Below the pieces are notes generated by a model. The model did no database searches, had not been told where the DNA came from, and saw only the letters and a list, made by a program, of their open reading frames with translations. A stretch of DNA of 64,000 nucleotides from a candidate division TA06 bacterium B3_TA06 (GTDB lineage Bacteria > Hydrothermota > Tepidihabitantia > B3-TA06): the NCBI GenBank assembly GCA_005223075.1, contig NJBO01000003.1, positions 9,902-73,901 of the forward strand, read 5' to 3'. The translations under genes were made by a program, and so were the position numbers. This document shows positions 14,405 through 21,048 of the stretch, one piece after another. Each line of letters starts with the position of its first letter. The stretch's first letter is position 1.

Positions 14405-14432
14405 TTGACATCACCTCCCTTCATTATATTAT
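14405..14432 (+). promoter_or_regulatory. Putative promoter TTGACA-N16-TATTAT ending 5 nt before serS ATG (leaderless-type)
   Basis: ttgaca 14405-14410, tattat 14427-14432, ATG 14438; no SD present. Confidence 0.45.
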
Positions 14433-14437
14433 ACCCC

Positions 14438-15691
14438 ATGATTGATCCCAAGAAGATTCGCGAGAACCCTGATGAGATTCGCAAGCTTCTGGCACGCCGA
14501 AGGTGTCCGGTCTCGGTGGACGAAGTTCTGGCGGCAGACGAGGAGCGGAGAAAACTGCAGGCAGAACGTGATACGCTGAGGCACGATCTGAAAGAGGCGT
14601 CCGATGCCATCGGTCAGCTCAAGCGCGAGGGCAAAGATGCATCCGGGGTGATGACAAAAACCAAGAAGCTCTCTGCTAAGACCAAGGAGCTGGATGGTAA
14701 GCTCTCGGAGATCGAGGCACGCTTCGAAGAGTTACTCTGGCAGCTGCCCAACCTGCCCGATCCGGGCTCGCCGGATGAAGATACCGTACTAAGGACGTGG
14801 GGAGAAAAACCAGAATTCGACTTCCAACCCGCCGATCACGTAACCATCTGCGAGAGACTTGAGCTTTGCGACTTCCGCTACGCGGCATCTTACGCCGGTG
14901 CACGTTTTGCCGCCTATACAGGCGATGGCGCGCTCCTCCTGCGTGCGCTGGTAAACCTCTGCCTTGATCTGCACACCAGAGAACACGGTTACAAAGAGGT
15001 CTTCCCGCCGGTATTAGCCCGTGCTGAATCGGCAAACGCCGCCGGGCAGCTTTCCAAACTTGAGGATATGTACGCGCTCAAGGACGATCCACTTTATTTA
15101 ATCCCAACCTCGGAGACAGCACTCATCAACCTGCATATGGGGCAAGAGATCAAGGAAGAAGACTTACCTCTTAAATACACCGCCTACACCTCCTGCTTCC
15201 GCCGCGAGGCAGGAACCTACGGCACCCAGACCAAAGGTCTCTTCCGCATACATCAGTTCGAGAAGGTGGAGCTTGTGCAGTTCGCGCATCCTGAGCACTG
15301 GCACCAGGCTTTCGATGAAATCCTTTCTAATGCTGAGAAGGTCCTTCAGCTTCTCGAGCTACCCTACAGGGTTAAGGCGCTCTCCCCAACCGAGGCCGCG
15401 TTCCAGGCATCACTCACCTACGACATCGACGTGTGGGCTGCAGGTGCCGAAGATTGGCTAGAGGTCTCCTCGATCTCCAATTGCGCCGACTTCCAGGCAC
15501 GTCGCAACAAGACGCGGCTGAGGCTCGCAGACGGCAGCTTGATCCATCCACACATACTCAACGGTTCGGGCACCGCGTTCCCCAGGCTCATCATCGCAAT
15601 CGTCGAGAACTACCAGCAAGCGGACGGCAGCATAAAAGTGCCTGACGCTCTGCGTCCCTACATGGACGGCAAGGAGCATCTGGGCAGATGA
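14438..15691 (+). CDS. serS: Seryl-tRNA synthetase
   Basis: Start placed at ATG 14438 (MIDPKKIRENPDE, typical SerS N-terminus); ORF-track start 14405 is an upstream in-frame TTG lying in the promoter. Confidence 0.9.
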   Translation: MIDPKKIRENPDEIRKLLARRRCPVSVDEVLAADEERRKLQAERDTLRHDLKEASDAIGQLKREGKDASGVMTKTKKLSAKTKELDGKLSEIEARFEELLWQLPNLPDPGSPDEDTVLRTWGEKPEFDFQPADHVTICERLELCDFRYAASYAGARFAAYTGDGALLLRALVNLCLDLHTREHGYKEVFPPVLARAESANAAGQLSKLEDMYALKDDPLYLIPTSETALINLHMGQEIKEEDLPLKYTAYTSCFRREAGTYGTQTKGLFRIHQFEKVELVQFAHPEHWHQAFDEILSNAEKVLQLLELPYRVKALSPTEAAFQASLTYDIDVWAAGAEDWLEVSSISNCADFQARRNKTRLRLADGSLIHPHILNGSGTAFPRLIIAIVENYQQADGSIKVPDALRPYMDGKEHLGR

Positions 15692-16812: not shown

Positions 16813-17366
16813 GCACCCTTCGCAGGGTCACCAGTCGAGGAGATAACAAGATCCTTGAGATTGAAACGAGTTTGGAGCTGAGCGAGGGTGACAGCTTGGC
16901 GGTGAGCGGTGCGTGCCTGACTGTGATCAAGGTTGAACCAGGATTCCTGAAGGCAGAGGCGACAGGAGAAACGATCAAAAGGACGATACTCGGCGATCTG
17001 CACGCAGGCTCACGGATCAATCTGGAGAGGGCGCTGACATTGCAGAAGCCCTTGGGAGGCCATCTGGTGCAGGGGCACGTGGATGAGGTGGGTAAGGTTG
17101 CCGCGCTCAAGAAGACTCAAGACGCATGGCATATAGAGGTGGCGTTCTCACGCGAAGCGGATGGTCTGGTGGTTGATCAGGGCTCTGTTGCCATTGATGG
17201 TGTTAGCCTCACGGTGTTAAAAAAATTGCCTGGGCCAAAACTCACCGTTAACCTGATCCCAGAGACCCTGCGCAGAACCACCTTATCCGGGCTAAGGGTG
17301 GGCGATAAGGTGAACCTTGAGTTCGATATAATCGCCAAGTACGTGCGGGAACACACCCGCCCGTAA
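16785..17366 (+). CDS. ribE: Riboflavin synthase alpha subunit
   Basis: 193 aa, MFTGIIEEVGTL N-terminus; overlaps ribD; 3' end contains tandem cacccgcccgtaa duplication. Confidence 0.85.
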   Translation: MFTGIIEEVGTLRRVTSRGDNKILEIETSLELSEGDSLAVSGACLTVIKVEPGFLKAEATGETIKRTILGDLHAGSRINLERALTLQKPLGGHLVQGHVDEVGKVAALKKTQDAWHIEVAFSREADGLVVDQGSVAIDGVSLTVLKKLPGPKLTVNLIPETLRRTTLSGLRVGDKVNLEFDIIAKYVREHTRP

Positions 17367-17388
17367 CACCCGCCCGTAACACCCCTTA

Positions 17389-17464
17389 ACCGCAGATTAC
17401 GCCGATTTCGCCGATGGATCTGTTCTTTAATCCGTGTAATCTGCGAAATCTGTGGTTTATTCCT
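17389..17464 (+). repeat. R6 76-bp direct repeat, copy 1
   Basis: accgcagattacgccgatttcgccgatggat...aatccgtgtaatctgcgaaatctgtggtttattcct. Confidence 0.75.
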
Positions 17465-17495
17465 GCGGGAGCAAATCGCAAGGTAGATTCCTTTT

Positions 17496-17571
17496 ATCCG
17501 CGGATTACGCCGATTTCGCCGATGGATATATTCTTTAATCCGTGTAATCTGCGAAATCTGTGGTTTATTCC
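17496..17571 (+). repeat. R6 76-bp direct repeat, copy 2
   Basis: Near-identical to copy 1, 31-bp spacer between; ends 8 bp before the -35 at 17579. Confidence 0.75.
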
Positions 17572-17578
17572 TAAGCAC

Positions 17579-17606
17579 TTGACACGTTAAGAACGCCCGT
17601 TATACT
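17579..17606 (+). promoter_or_regulatory. Putative promoter TTGACA-N16-TATACT for the 17768-19799 operon
   Basis: ttgaca 17579-17584, tatact 17601-17606. Confidence 0.5.
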
Positions 17607-17767
17607 TGATTCCGGTTCTCTGGAGGCATCTGCGGACACGGGAACAAACGCACAAGCAACGCTAGTTGGAGCCTTAGCACAATGATACTAACTCCAATGA
17701 ATAAGCCGGCACCCCCTTGACAAGCGACAGTTTTGCCCTATTCTTAGGCATACAGAGGAGGATATGA

Positions 17768-18454
17768 ATGCCCAAAAAGGCCGATAAAGAACTGGAAAAG
17801 TTTAAGAAAGTCGTTGGTCTCCTGCGTCAGCTATACAAAGACGACGGGATGAAAATCCTTGTTCACCCTGACGGCGTTGATCTTAAAATTGAAGAAGGTG
17901 CATTGGAAAAATATATTAAGGGAATGGATTTGAAACTAGAAGAGGTGAAAAGTTCGATAGGGGAAATCTCCAAATTTCTTAACGTTACGAGAGGTAAGTA
18001 CGAAGAAATAGAAATATCTGTAGACATACTTTTAGGCCCCCCTTCTGAGGAGGAAACCGAAAAAGCCCGAAAAGAAAGGGGAGAAATACTAGAAAAGAAG
18101 ATAGGCATACTCAAAGAAATCGAACCGGAATGGGCCATTCGCAGAAGATCAAAAGCAAAACGGCGGGCGAAGACTCCCGTAGTTACGGAAGTCAGGTGGG
18201 AGATAAACCGGAGGCTGGCGGATGAACGTAAATCGAAACGAGAGTCGACCCCCTTTGCGACTATTGAATTCCGTTACTTAGAACCGCCTTTTGGTCCTTC
18301 CGAAGACCCTTTAGCAAGGATTCTATCACCGATTTTTGGAATCCATAGAATTCAAAAAAGTCTCTCCTTAGGGTGTGACAAGGAAGATATCCGTTATTTG
18401 ATAAGCGAACTCAAAAAAATAGAAGATGAGTTAGCAACCGGAGAATCCAAGTGA
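17768..18454 (+). CDS. Hypothetical protein (Lys/Glu-rich), gene 1 of AT-rich three-gene operon
   Basis: 228-aa ORF with SD gaggaggatatgaATG; low GC relative to surroundings. Confidence 0.5.
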   Translation: MPKKADKELEKFKKVVGLLRQLYKDDGMKILVHPDGVDLKIEEGALEKYIKGMDLKLEEVKSSIGEISKFLNVTRGKYEEIEISVDILLGPPSEEETEKARKERGEILEKKIGILKEIEPEWAIRRRSKAKRRAKTPVVTEVRWEINRRLADERKSKRESTPFATIEFRYLEPPFGPSEDPLARILSPIFGIHRIQKSLSLGCDKEDIRYLISELKKIEDELATGESK

Positions 18455-19041
18455 GATATCTAGAGGAAAGAAACATTGAAGAAATTTTCCGCATCATGCG
18501 GGGCATGTTTAACTTGCATTGGGGCCATTTAAAAGAACATGCGACTGAAATAGAAAACATTAAAAAAACGGTAAGTGAATTCCTTAAGTTAACGCCAGAG
18601 CGTGCGGAATTTGTTCATCAGCCATCACGAGAACACAAGGAAATAAGGTTTTTAGTGATTCTGAATGATTTACGACTCGCAGCAGAAACTACGCTGGAGT
18701 CTTTTGATGATCTTGGGCAACGACTAGATTGTTTCTGTAGGGTGCAAGAGAAGGCAGATTCTCTCTATGAGGCAGTAAGACATCTTGACTTACGCAGGGA
18801 TGTCCGGAAACAGATCGCGCTCACCATCAGAGACGCTGTGAGAAATATCTATGCTGAGGATCTTGAAAAAGAAAATCTCCAAGCACTGCTTAAGGCCATA
18901 AAGGTTGCAGCAAAGGAAGAACTTCATCCCTCAGATCATATGCAGGTATTAGAATTCCTTTATGAGGGCGACCTAGATGCATACCCGCATCTTGATGAAG
19001 ACCTTTCCAAAATAATTGAAGAAGAAAACCAAAACGAGTGA
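18451..19041 (+). CDS. Hypothetical protein, gene 2 of AT-rich operon
   Basis: 196 aa; start overlaps upstream stop by 4 nt. Confidence 0.5.
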   Translation: MRYLEERNIEEIFRIMRGMFNLHWGHLKEHATEIENIKKTVSEFLKLTPERAEFVHQPSREHKEIRFLVILNDLRLAAETTLESFDDLGQRLDCFCRVQEKADSLYEAVRHLDLRRDVRKQIALTIRDAVRNIYAEDLEKENLQALLKAIKVAAKEELHPSDHMQVLEFLYEGDLDAYPHLDEDLSKIIEEENQNE

Positions 19042-19799
19042 AGCTTTTTCTCGACACAACTGTCCAAATGAACAGATACCTGGGTAAACAAAAGACCAAG
19101 AAAAAAATACGCAAAAAAATAAACCAAAGCACATCGTGTACTGCATCGAATTACGTTCTTGGTGAATACAGATGGACAATTGTCAAGGATGCGGCAATCT
19201 TTTTGAATTTGTTGAAAAGCTCTAATTCGATCAATGAAGCCGTCAATAGACTACCCTCTTATAATAGAAGAACGGAGAGAGTAACGAAAAAAATCCTTGG
19301 GCCAGTAATGGAGGAGTTACGGAACAGTGCCCCTAACCGACCGATGTCCGAATTAAAAGAAGCATTGCAGGAACGTGTAGAATATCTTTTAGATTGGTTG
19401 CTGGATTATTACTTTTGGGTAAGGATAGATAGGGATTCATTTGTAAAATCACCTGAATGCGTAGATGCACGGATTGAACCTTCTGCATCCGAAAAAATTT
19501 CATGTCCTCTTACAAAACCACCTCCTTGTGACATCGAGGATTTCTGGAGCCGTCACAAGGCGGAACTAAAGTCACTCGCCCATAACCTTCCTGATAGCCT
19601 GAGTAAATTTAAATCTCCAGCGGCATCCATCTTGAGAAATCCTGAAAAGGCGCATGGTAAGAAATGTCGCTACATCTTGGGGGATGCAATAATTGCCACA
19701 CAATGTCCTAAAGGTTATCGAGTCTTTACAACCAACACCGGGGATTTCCAACCAATCTGTCAGGCGGTCGGAAAGTCCACTCCAATTGGCCTTAAATAA
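19038..19799 (+). CDS. PIN-like nuclease domain protein (putative), gene 3 of AT-rich operon
   Basis: 253 aa; N-terminal MKLFLDTTV and C-terminal LGDAIIATQ...FTTNTGDFQPI resemble the first and last acidic motifs of PIN domains; long Cys-containing insertion; start overlaps upstream stop. Confidence 0.45.
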   Translation: MKLFLDTTVQMNRYLGKQKTKKKIRKKINQSTSCTASNYVLGEYRWTIVKDAAIFLNLLKSSNSINEAVNRLPSYNRRTERVTKKILGPVMEELRNSAPNRPMSELKEALQERVEYLLDWLLDYYFWVRIDRDSFVKSPECVDARIEPSASEKISCPLTKPPPCDIEDFWSRHKAELKSLAHNLPDSLSKFKSPAASILRNPEKAHGKKCRYILGDAIIATQCPKGYRVFTTNTGDFQPICQAVGKSTPIGLK

Positions 19800-19818
19800 T
19801 TATACTGTCTCATAACAC

Positions 19819-19846
19819 TTGACAGTTCCAAAGCCCCAGATATACT
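19819..19846 (+). promoter_or_regulatory. Putative promoter TTGACA-N16-TATACT upstream of the aminotransferase gene
   Basis: ttgaca 19819-19824, tatact 19841-19846; ~130-nt leader with agatgt...acatct hairpin. Confidence 0.45.
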
Positions 19847-19974
19847 AGAGTTCGTTTGACAAGATAGATGTAAAGACGCAGACATCTGTGTTGCTAAGTG
19901 GTTGGATTAAAACGTCTTAACAGAGGCGTTTTCGGAAAGTTGAATAGATTAACCCTCAAACCTCCGAGGAGGTA

Positions 19975-21048
19975 GTGATGCATAAGAAACTTTTCATCCC
20001 AGGACCCACCGAGGTCCTGCCTGAGGTTCTAGAGGCTCAGACCAAACCCATGTTCGGGCACCGCATGAAGGAGGCATCCGAACTGGGAACATCGGTAATC
20101 AACAAGCTGAAAAAAGTACTGGAGACCGACCAGCAGGTGATCGTGTGGACCGCTTCGGGTTCCTTGATCATGGAGGCATCCATACGCAACAGCGTCAAGA
20201 AGGGCGTGCTCAACACTATCTGCGGGGCCTTTTCCGAGCGCTGGCACAAGATGGCCAAGGCCAACGGCTTGCCATGTGGTGCTATTGAAGTCGAATGGGG
20301 CAAGGCCATAACGCCGGAGATGGTGGATCAAGAACTGGCAACCGGCAAATACGACGTGCTGTGCCTTACCCATAACGAAACCTCCACCGGCGTAATGAAC
20401 CCAACCGATGCGATCGCGGACATGGTGCGTGAGCGCTATCCGGACGTTTTGATTCTGGTAGACGCCGTCTCCTCACTCACCGGTGCCAGGATCAACGTTG
20501 ACAAATACGACGTGGTTTTGACCTCTACCCAGAAATGTGTGGCACTTCCACCCGGCCTTTCCTTCTGCACCGTCTCCGACAGGTTCCTTGAGCGGGCCCA
20601 GACCATCGAGCACCGCGGCCACTACACCGACTTCCTACTCATGAAGAAGTACATAGACGAGCGAGGCGGACAGACACCATCCACCCCCAACCTTGCCCTC
20701 TACAACGCACTCGACTTCCAGCTCGATCGCATGCTTGAAGAAGGCATGGACAACCGTTACAAGCGTCACTCGGATATGGCCAACCGCGTGCGCTCCTGGG
20801 CAAAGGAGCACTTTGATCTTTTCCCTGAGCAAGGCTATGAGTCCGAGACCGTGACCGTTATCGCCAACACCAAGGGCATAAGTGTGGCCGATTTGAACAA
20901 GGCATTGGCTGAGCGCGGCATGGCCCTAGCCAACGGCTACGGTAAAAAGCTCAAGGAGAAGACCTTCCGCATCGCCCACATGGGTGATCTTCAGATGAAA
21001 GACATAGACGAGCTATTGGCCGCTATAGACGACATACTCGGCCACTAG
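19975..21048 (+). CDS. Class V aminotransferase (serine-glyoxylate or phosphoserine aminotransferase type)
   Basis: 357 aa; PLP-dependent class V pattern (VLILVDAVSSL, TSTQKCVALPPG); adjacent to serA-like gene. Confidence 0.8.
   Translation: MMHKKLFIPGPTEVLPEVLEAQTKPMFGHRMKEASELGTSVINKLKKVLETDQQVIVWTASGSLIMEASIRNSVKKGVLNTICGAFSERWHKMAKANGLPCGAIEVEWGKAITPEMVDQELATGKYDVLCLTHNETSTGVMNPTDAIADMVRERYPDVLILVDAVSSLTGARINVDKYDVVLTSTQKCVALPPGLSFCTVSDRFLERAQTIEHRGHYTDFLLMKKYIDERGGQTPSTPNLALYNALDFQLDRMLEEGMDNRYKRHSDMANRVRSWAKEHFDLFPEQGYESETVTVIANTKGISVADLNKALAERGMALANGYGKKLKEKTFRIAHMGDLQMKDIDELLAAIDDILGH

Follow-up and report, generated by a model that had tools for sequence, protein, structure and literature searches.

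A three-gene module built around a predicted VapC-class PIN nuclease with a long cysteine-bearing insertion, a putative toxin-antitoxin system of TA06 and other Bacteria and Archaea

We analyzed 64,000 nucleotides of the genome of the candidate division TA06 bacterium B3_TA06 (GCA_005223075.1, contig NJBO01000003.1, positions 9,902 to 73,901; hereafter the window), in which three AT-rich genes lie between ribE and the Aminotran_5, serA and DUF1015 genes of the serine operon (the ribE|serC site). Coordinates without a locus number refer to the window, in which the trio, its parts and its proximal promoter-like and Shine-Dalgarno sites lie on the + strand. Gene A (17768-18454; 228 aa, ATG start) is the accessory first gene of the module. 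Gene B (18451-19041; 196 aa, GTG start) encodes a putative antitoxin or inhibitor of the third product, and gene C (19038-19799; 253 aa, GTG start; protein CEE36_02840) encodes a predicted, enlarged VapC-type PIN nuclease and putative toxin. The A/B and B/C junctions are each a 4-nt GTGA overlap. The three coupled open reading frames (ORFs) are exactly as described in a first-pass annotation of the window that was made from the sequence alone. The lower guanine plus cytosine (GC) content claimed there was borne out by computation, at about 0.42 for the trio compared to about 0.55 for the flanks. The genes of the trio (17768-19799) range from 0.416 to 0.425, with a GC content at third codon positions (GC3) of 0.38-0.41, whereas the neighboring serS, ribD, ribE, Aminotran_5, serA and DUF1015 genes have a GC content of 0.55-0.60 and a GC3 of 0.64-0.75. 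None of A, B and C matches Pfam, NCBIfam, PHROGs or PADLOC, and searches for Rfam families (in the trio region and in the whole window) and for tRNAs gave no matches.

A word-indexed search for C retrieved just two or three relatives. An exhaustive profile search retrieved 437 cluster representatives at E ≤ 1e-3, 135 of which are at E ≤ 1e-10. Nearly all of the 437 have a length of approximately 250 aa and align over their entire sequence; they come from both Bacteria and Archaea, and the family has no Pfam model of its own. The small yield of the word-indexed search, the atypical composition and the lack of database annotations could indicate an artefact of gene prediction, or foreign DNA that is decaying and has lost its function. 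We count this explanation as refuted by the tests that we ran, and give it next to no credence. The family matches over its full length, the fold prediction for C is confident, none of the four TA06 relatives that carry the trio has a disrupted reading frame, and the promoter and Shine-Dalgarno sequence are conserved (see below). In addition, all three genes are constrained, with ratios of nonsynonymous to synonymous divergence (omega) of 0.15-0.47 between relatives, i.e., purifying selection. By these sequence comparisons, the trio is a real, widely distributed and conserved unit.

The predicted structure of C is confident and adopts the PIN fold (three-layer alpha/beta/alpha). The closest folds are VapC toxins and not the FEN- or NYN-type processing nucleases. 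The PIN core is formed by two parts. The N-terminal part (residues 1-45, with D6 and E43; 19038-19172) aligns with the N-terminal motif of VapC, and the C-terminal part (residues 206-253, with D216, D236 and a TTN motif; 19653-19796) aligns with the VapC motif 'DAIIlAtA...lvTrNtkDF'. They are separated by a helical insertion of approximately 160 residues (19173-19652). The first-pass annotation had proposed a PIN-like protein with a long insertion on the basis of the motifs MKLFLDTTV and DAIIAT...TTNTGDFQPI; both motifs are present, and the fold prediction and the VapC neighbors uphold the proposal. It had also named the acidic tetrad as the feature to check. By sequence, the window protein carries the full tetrad of D6, E43, D216 and D236, and these positions are conserved in the family. 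In an alignment of 70 relatives, on which all conservation figures for C rest, C141 and D216 are invariant, and conservation reaches at least 90% at T7, V40, E43, C156, C164, C210 and I219. At position 6, 41 of the 70 sequences have D and 28 have E; E43 is found in 63, and position 233 is N in 60 and D in 10. The window C has no match to the Pfam PIN family (PF01850) at E ≤ 1, i.e., it falls below the gathering threshold, and 7 of the 70 relatives match this family weakly (best E 4.5e-6). A profile search of the Protein Data Bank (PDB) with the whole of C gave a marginal VapC match at best, Foldseek comparison against the PDB and BFVD gave nothing significant, and no solved structure was found that spans both the PIN core and the insertion. 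Based on the motifs and the structural model, C is a predicted VapC-class PIN nuclease with a long helical insertion. One family member (P0148, 456 aa) carries approximately 200 additional N-terminal residues, before the PIN domain with its four cysteines, that by eye resemble a PD-(D/E)xK restriction-type domain (IVPDY...VIDAKS).

Three of the four conserved cysteines lie within the insertion, namely C141 (19458-19460; 70 of 70 relatives), C156 (19503-19505; 67 of 70) and C164 (19527-19529; 69 of 70). The fourth, C210 (19665-19667; 68 of 70), lies just past it. Their spacing, C-x14-C-x7-C-x45-C, suggests a structural metal site that would hold Zn or an Fe-S cluster. Four conserved cysteines are typical of Fe-S nucleases, and this likeness is one reason to consider that the trio encodes a housekeeping nuclease complex, adapted to its lineage, that acts in RNA processing or in DNA repair and in which C would have an Fe-S site and A and B would be structural subunits. 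The fold comparison points away from such a complex, because the nearest folds to C are VapC toxins.

We examined the genomic contexts of the family by looking up individual relatives of C and by searching with a degenerate DNA pattern for the N-terminal motif LFL[DE]TTIQ[IV][DE], which yielded 18 loci from species genomes (at least 15 genuine) and 56 from metagenomes (55 genuine). Local Hidden Markov Models were then used for a census of architectures over about 75 loci. A and B (with C) were found in 24 loci, and an unrelated first gene, A', with C (and B) in 15. A further 11 loci encode C preceded by a fusion of a Phd/YefM domain with the domain of B. B and C only, often at a contig end, were found in 13 loci, and C only was detected in 12.

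Wherever gene B was detected, it immediately precedes C, in most cases with an overlap; this applies to the majority of the approximately 75 surveyed loci, counted where flanking sequence exists. The N-terminal half of the protein is hypervariable and the C-terminal half is conserved; the helical C-terminal domain (residues 68-190; 18652-19020) is the putative C-binding and neutralizing domain. A profile search of PDB sequences with B gave only noise. The 11 two-gene relatives are more informative. In these loci the A gene is absent and the upstream protein consists of an N-terminal Phd/YefM domain (35.1-49.5 bits in PF02604, cut-off 29.8) joined to the C-terminal domain of B, the correspondence of which was established by hhalign (probability 91.5%, E 8.8e-7, 118 columns). 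PIN toxins are often paired with antitoxins of the Phd fold (PMC5499597). Because a Phd/YefM domain followed by the B domain has the usual layout of type II antitoxins, the C-terminal domain of B probably is the part that deals with C, and the fusion fits a toxin module; for a housekeeping complex, it is an unexpected arrangement. Thus, B looks like the antitoxin of C, a putative assignment drawn from domain architecture.

Homologues of A occupy the same first position in 24 of the 75 surveyed loci. The conserved part is the C-terminal approximately 100 residues, in which K135 and W144 are invariant. The whole protein has no match in Pfam, the PDB or PADLOC. However, the region of about residues 135-226 (18170-18445; RWEINRRLAD, PFATIEFRY and SLSLGCDKEDIRYLISELKKIEDEL) gives weak profile matches to the COMM domain. 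Searched against the PDB, the A profile matched the COMM domain of human COMMD3 (8f2r_C) at E = 0.004, and another subgroup of A did so at E = 0.061. The Pfam COMM_domain (PF07258) was the family matched by the most members of A (3 of 17, best E 2.1e-5); the window A itself has no match to it. An hhalign comparison to an approximate sequence of human COMMD1 was collinear over the whole COMM domain but weak (E 0.007, probability 5%). The order of three strands followed by a helix in the C-terminus of A agrees with the published description of the COMM domain (PMC13392464). We note that the C-terminus of A may be COMM-like, and treat this as a weak lead. It qualifies the statement of the first-pass annotation that A and B have no recognizable domains, which otherwise holds in that neither protein matches the libraries.

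In the 15 loci in which A is replaced, A' encodes a 229-aa protein with many invariant residues (MEFxxFxLxRVIxELRYDxGxLYWDxCG...). These comprise L015 (5712-6401), L021 (1455-2144), L026 (3597-4286), L037 (2738-3430) and 11 metagenome loci. A' has no match in Pfam, NCBIfam or the PDB. The possibility that A and A' are distant homologues was rejected (hhalign probability 0.3%), as was a Phd/YefM-like N-terminus of A, for which hhalign gave no signal. Gene fusions join the components in other combinations that agree with the role assigned to the C-terminal domain of B, including the N-terminal region of A with the C-terminal domain of B (L009, 5300-6004) and A' with B as one ORF of 445 aa (L061, 147-1484).

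The bacterial carriers of the module include Laceyella putida and Paenibacillus senegalimassiliensis (Bacillota), Caldilineaceae and Anaerolineae (Chloroflexota), Aminicenantes, Planctomycetota and TA06, and the archaeal carriers include Methanophagales (ANME-1), Methanosarcinales, Syntrophoarchaeum and Altiarchaeales. The low GC content seen in the window is typical of the module almost everywhere. In 38 of 42 loci, it exceeds the remainder of the locus in AT content (mean difference in GC content -0.063; sign test 6e-8, with loci that are not all independent). The insertion site differs from lineage to lineage. For example, in L007 (4725-6774; GCA_016213015.1), a trio with a GC content of 0.39-0.44 lies between sucC and sucD (0.58-0.60), which are normally adjacent in one operon, and two MNT/HEPN-type pairs are encoded within 6 kb. 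In ANME-1 and Methanosarcinales, the trio lies downstream of a gene of 495-496 aa (L028, 2311-7187; L029, 156-5006; L031, 198-3761) that was confirmed in L028 and L029 to encode a HerA-type (DUF87) ATPase; in these two loci, an AspRS-type class II tRNA synthetase gene follows the trio. In L017, the module lies between an S8 peptidase gene and mutS. It adjoins an OLD-TOPRIM ATPase and a RelA_SpoT protein in Paenibacillus, and TIR, insertion sequence (IS) and methylase-Mrr genes in L015. Some copies are damaged. An IS (DDE_Tnp_1) interrupts B in L019 (5034-7001), after a truncated B, and C has been broken into two ORFs in L027 (11899-12740; Planctomycetota, the same contig as L086) and in the metagenome contigs L093 (3235-4076) and L058 (1364-2108).

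These contexts bear on two alternatives to a toxin-antitoxin (TA) module. The first, which we regard as the main variant of the TA-type mechanism, is that the trio is no plain addiction module but a dedicated anti-phage abortive-infection system in which A or A' is a swappable sensor of a phage cue that releases the PIN nuclease from B to degrade host or phage RNA. The first gene alternates between the unrelated A and A', as sensors often do, and the module has TIR, OLD-TOPRIM, RelA_SpoT, restriction-modification and MNT/HEPN neighbors in several loci. The N-terminal extension of P0148 and the hypervariable, recombining alleles at a fixed locus in TA06 (see below) would also fit. However, the defence-type neighbors are observations at individual loci, and many loci, including the window, lie purely among housekeeping genes with no defence island. 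The first-pass suggestion to look for the same trio in defence islands is answered in part, in that the module frequently neighbors defence, TA or mobile-element genes. There is also no match to a PADLOC defence model, as the window A, B and C give none at E ≤ 1 and a scan of the 70 relatives of C gave scattered single matches, all at E > 0.004. On balance we consider a dedicated anti-phage role possible but unlikely. The second alternative is the housekeeping complex mentioned above. Neighboring DNA-repair genes favor it, including a DinG-like helicase gene upstream in TA06, HerA in ANME and Methanosarcinales and mutS in L017. It is at odds with the patchy taxonomic spread and lineage-specific insertion sites, with the AT-rich composition relative to the host almost everywhere, and with the pseudogenized and IS-disrupted copies.

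The same trio occurs at the same ribE/serine site in four related TA06 genomes (the window, L001, L006 and L002-L005), with a GC content of 0.40-0.44 in all four compared to a host GC3 of 0.64-0.80. In the trio, the similarities among these genomes do not follow those in the flanks. Between the window and L006, the flanking proteins are 94-96% identical, with nonsynonymous divergence (dN) of 0.02-0.05 and synonymous divergence (dS) of 0.14-0.41, whereas the trio proteins are 47-56% identical, with dN of 0.36-0.47 and dS of at least 1.5 or not computable (saturated). Between the window and L001, the flanking proteins are 79-87% identical. In the trio, C is 85% identical, the C-terminal half of B 88% and the N-terminal half of B 34%. 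At the DNA level, identity between the window and L001 is 92-100% over the tract 18736-19150 but only about 65-88% in the flanking genes. This tract begins at the border between the variable and conserved halves of B, which from the alignments is where a recombination breakpoint sits. Because of this starting point, the exchanged unit is the C-terminal domain of B together with C. Divergence of the trio in place under relaxed constraint was rejected, since dS has likewise reached saturation and the pattern of similarities conflicts with that of the flanks. This conflict implies that old, strongly diverged alleles are kept at the locus and swapped by recombination. The first-pass annotation had suggested horizontal acquisition. 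The comparisons indicate horizontal exchange in the form of allele replacement and mosaicism; a recent arrival is not supported, given that the trio is at the same site in four diverged relatives.

The TA06 locus also lends support to the housekeeping explanation, as the position at ribE and the serine operon is stable in the four relatives and all three genes are under purifying selection. Against this, housekeeping genes show no divergence as extreme as that of the trio, in which dS is saturated between near-identical genomes. Because of its distribution, its composition, its allele pattern and the damaged copies, we consider it improbable that the module is a housekeeping complex, and less probable than a dedicated anti-phage system.

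The sequence upstream of the trio in the window contains two direct repeats (17386-17464 and 17494-17572) of 79 nt, and not of 76 bp as initially annotated, with 95% identity and a period of 108 nt. Each contains a 17-nt inverted repeat. Neither the rest of the window nor any of the 94 fetched loci contains a further copy. Alignment of the upstream intergenic regions of the four TA06-lineage loci shows that approximately 270 bp (roughly 17367-17637) is present only in the window. This insertion is bracketed by a duplicated 3' end of ribE (about 17343-17366 and 17638-17665) and carries both repeats as well as a distal promoter-like site, TTGACA-N16-TATACT (17579-17606; 11/12), that is missing from the other three loci. 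It looks like a small non-autonomous repeat element. The repeats were therefore rejected as cassette boundaries, and neither they, which the first-pass annotation had linked to the acquisition of the trio, nor the distal promoter are signs of it, since both sit within an insertion confined to this genome; the repeats have no role in the allelic exchange described above. A proximal site, TTGACA-N16-TATTCT (17717-17744; 10/12), which is absent from the first-pass annotation, is the candidate promoter of the trio, a function suggested by its position and conservation, as the hexamers TTGACA and TAT.CT are invariant in all four TA06-lineage loci. It is followed by the Shine-Dalgarno sequence AGAGGAGGA (17754-17762), the GGAGG core of which lies 6 nt before the ATG of gene A; the AGGAGGA ribosome-binding site is kept in all four genomes. 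We note that promoter-like sites are no more numerous in the region than expected by chance (5 compared to 4.7 expected in shuffled sequence).

Downstream of the trio there is a further promoter-like site, TTGACA-N16-TATACT (19819-19846; 11/12), in an intergenic region that is 97-100% identical among the window, L006 and L001. Consensus sites thus do exist on both sides of the trio, as initially annotated, but the downstream one is the conserved promoter of the serine operon and not of the trio. The region 19800-19975 is the leader of the serine-biosynthesis operon, in which this promoter is followed by a hairpin and U-run (about 19909-19935). The stem of this hairpin varies at single positions among the window, L006 and L001. 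A CCUCC...GGAGG hairpin could sequester the ribosome-binding site (fold z-score -2.1; no Rfam match). The leader may act as an attenuator and as a terminator of trio transcripts. Further upstream in the window, the serS ORF (14405-15691) was assigned a TTG start mechanically (428 aa). Its relatives are 417 aa long and start with MIDPKKIREN, which places the probable true start at the ATG that follows the TTG by 11 codons.

Taken together, we favor the reading of the trio as a putative tripartite TA-type module built around a VapBC-like pair, and assign it a probability of about 60%. From sequence, we infer a mechanism that includes the toxicity of C, its binding by B, the role of A, the binding of metal and the trigger, as follows. 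C would be a Mg2+-dependent VapC-class PIN endonuclease; because it is of the VapC class, its substrate would most likely be RNA (tRNA, rRNA or mRNA). The helical insertion of approximately 160 residues would be held by the four-cysteine metal site and probably shapes the binding of substrate or partner. B, which is translationally coupled to C, would bind and neutralize C through its C-terminal helical domain, and the variable N-terminal half would connect B to A or A'. A and A' would stand in place of the Phd/YefM DNA-binding domain of the two-gene forms and provide control of the complex by autoregulation or sensing; for A, such a role is suggested by its mutual exclusivity with the Phd/YefM fusion. 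A might be an oligomeric COMM-like scaffold. Loss or displacement of B would free C and stop growth, with proteolysis, infection or loss of the locus as possible triggers. The biological role may be addiction, phage defence or both. As a whole, the module behaves like a selfish or defence-type accessory element, AT-rich and patchy, that lands between housekeeping genes.

Several observations weigh against this TA-type module. C and B are larger than in classical VapBC systems (253 and 196 aa compared to about 130 and 80 aa), and at the fourth catalytic position of C, 236, 30 of the 70 relatives have D and 37 have H, so that about half of the family has His there. The window B has no recognizable DNA-binding domain, and A and B match no known antitoxin family. 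No relative of C was found in plasmid and phage collections (tblastn) or in viral contigs (degenerate pattern), which is unusual for a mobile TA module. The lack of PADLOC matches counts here as well, and the TIR, restriction-modification, OLD-TOPRIM, RelA_SpoT, HEPN/MNT and IS neighbors are again observations at individual loci. Moreover, in TA06 the module is found at one housekeeping site across roughly 20-30% divergence of the flanking proteins, and no empty site was found at this locus. The module may therefore have a lineage-specific, domesticated role in TA06.

We compared the module to known systems. With VapBC systems (M. tuberculosis VapC21, 5sv2; Shigella VapC, 6sd6; FitAB, 2bsq), C shares the D/E/D/D tetrad and the N- and C-terminal VapC motifs, and in both the partner gene lies upstream and overlaps the toxin gene. 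The two-gene relatives of the module use a Phd/YefM DNA-binding domain, as do many VapB antitoxins (PMC5499597). However, C is twice the usual toxin size, with the insertion of approximately 160 residues and four conserved cysteines, and falls below the Pfam PIN threshold in the window. The putative toxin-binding domain of B (about 115 residues) matches no known antitoxin family, and the module has a third gene.

Three-gene TA systems that have a separate regulator or helper, such as omega-epsilon-zeta, PaaR-PaaA-ParE and the toxin-antitoxin-chaperone (TAC) systems, are arranged in the order accessory gene, antitoxin and toxin. The module has the same gene order. B has no recognizable DNA-binding domain of its own, and A could by analogy supply regulation or stabilization. 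It differs in that A has no sequence or fold kinship to omega, PaaR or SecB-like chaperones and, at about 220 aa, is far above the typical size of a repressor.

Other PIN-like nucleases with metal modules (Mut7-C with its zinc ribbon, Nob1, PRORP and PIN_11; PMC5499597) resemble C in combining a PIN-like core with a four-Cys/His site that probably stabilizes an added element. In those families the zinc ribbon is C-terminal or flanking, on Mut7-C, NYN or PRORP-class cores, whereas in C the cysteines are distributed along a helical insertion inside a VapC-class core. The published PIN classification includes numerous small VapC-class clusters without names, and it describes zinc modules for other classes only (PMC5499597).

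Prokaryotic COMMD-like proteins occur in Bacteria and Archaea and form rings of 8 to 10 subunits, the function of which is obscure (Liu et al., Nat Commun 2026, PMC13392464). A is similar to them in size (about 200-240 aa). Its C-terminus has a strand with W-x-[DE], a second strand, and a final strand with a long helix, in the COMM order, although the match is statistically weak. The words 'PIN', 'toxin' and 'nuclease' occur nowhere in that paper, which reports no PIN or toxin neighborhood (PMC13392464). It is conceivable, if rather doubtful, that A is a genuine ring-forming prokaryotic COMMD-like protein, that a COMM scaffold controls a metal-cluster PIN toxin through B, and that A' is an alternative scaffold or sensor. 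Our literature search found no described system that combines PIN and COMM domains and no three-gene PIN system; the family is undescribed in the libraries and literature searched.

The PIN toxin, the upstream antitoxin and the three-gene layout proposed here are thus of known kinds. The module departs from these kinds in four ways: the toxin is unusually large and carries an insertion with cysteines, the antitoxin domain is new, the first gene can be exchanged, and one component is possibly COMM-like. An uncharacterized family with 437 representatives, spread over many phyla of Bacteria and several orders of Archaea, ANME among them, gains a testable mechanism. VapBC-type systems would be extended by a double-sized toxin with a probable metal site, a new antitoxin domain and an exchangeable first gene. 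The TA06 locus clearly illustrates allele shuffling in nature, with ancient AT-rich accessory alleles that persist at one housekeeping site. If the COMM signal of A survives structure prediction, the module would give prokaryotic COMMD-like proteins a functional partner and a first functional context, and would tie relatives of the core of the eukaryotic Commander complex to toxin-antitoxin or immune-type modules.

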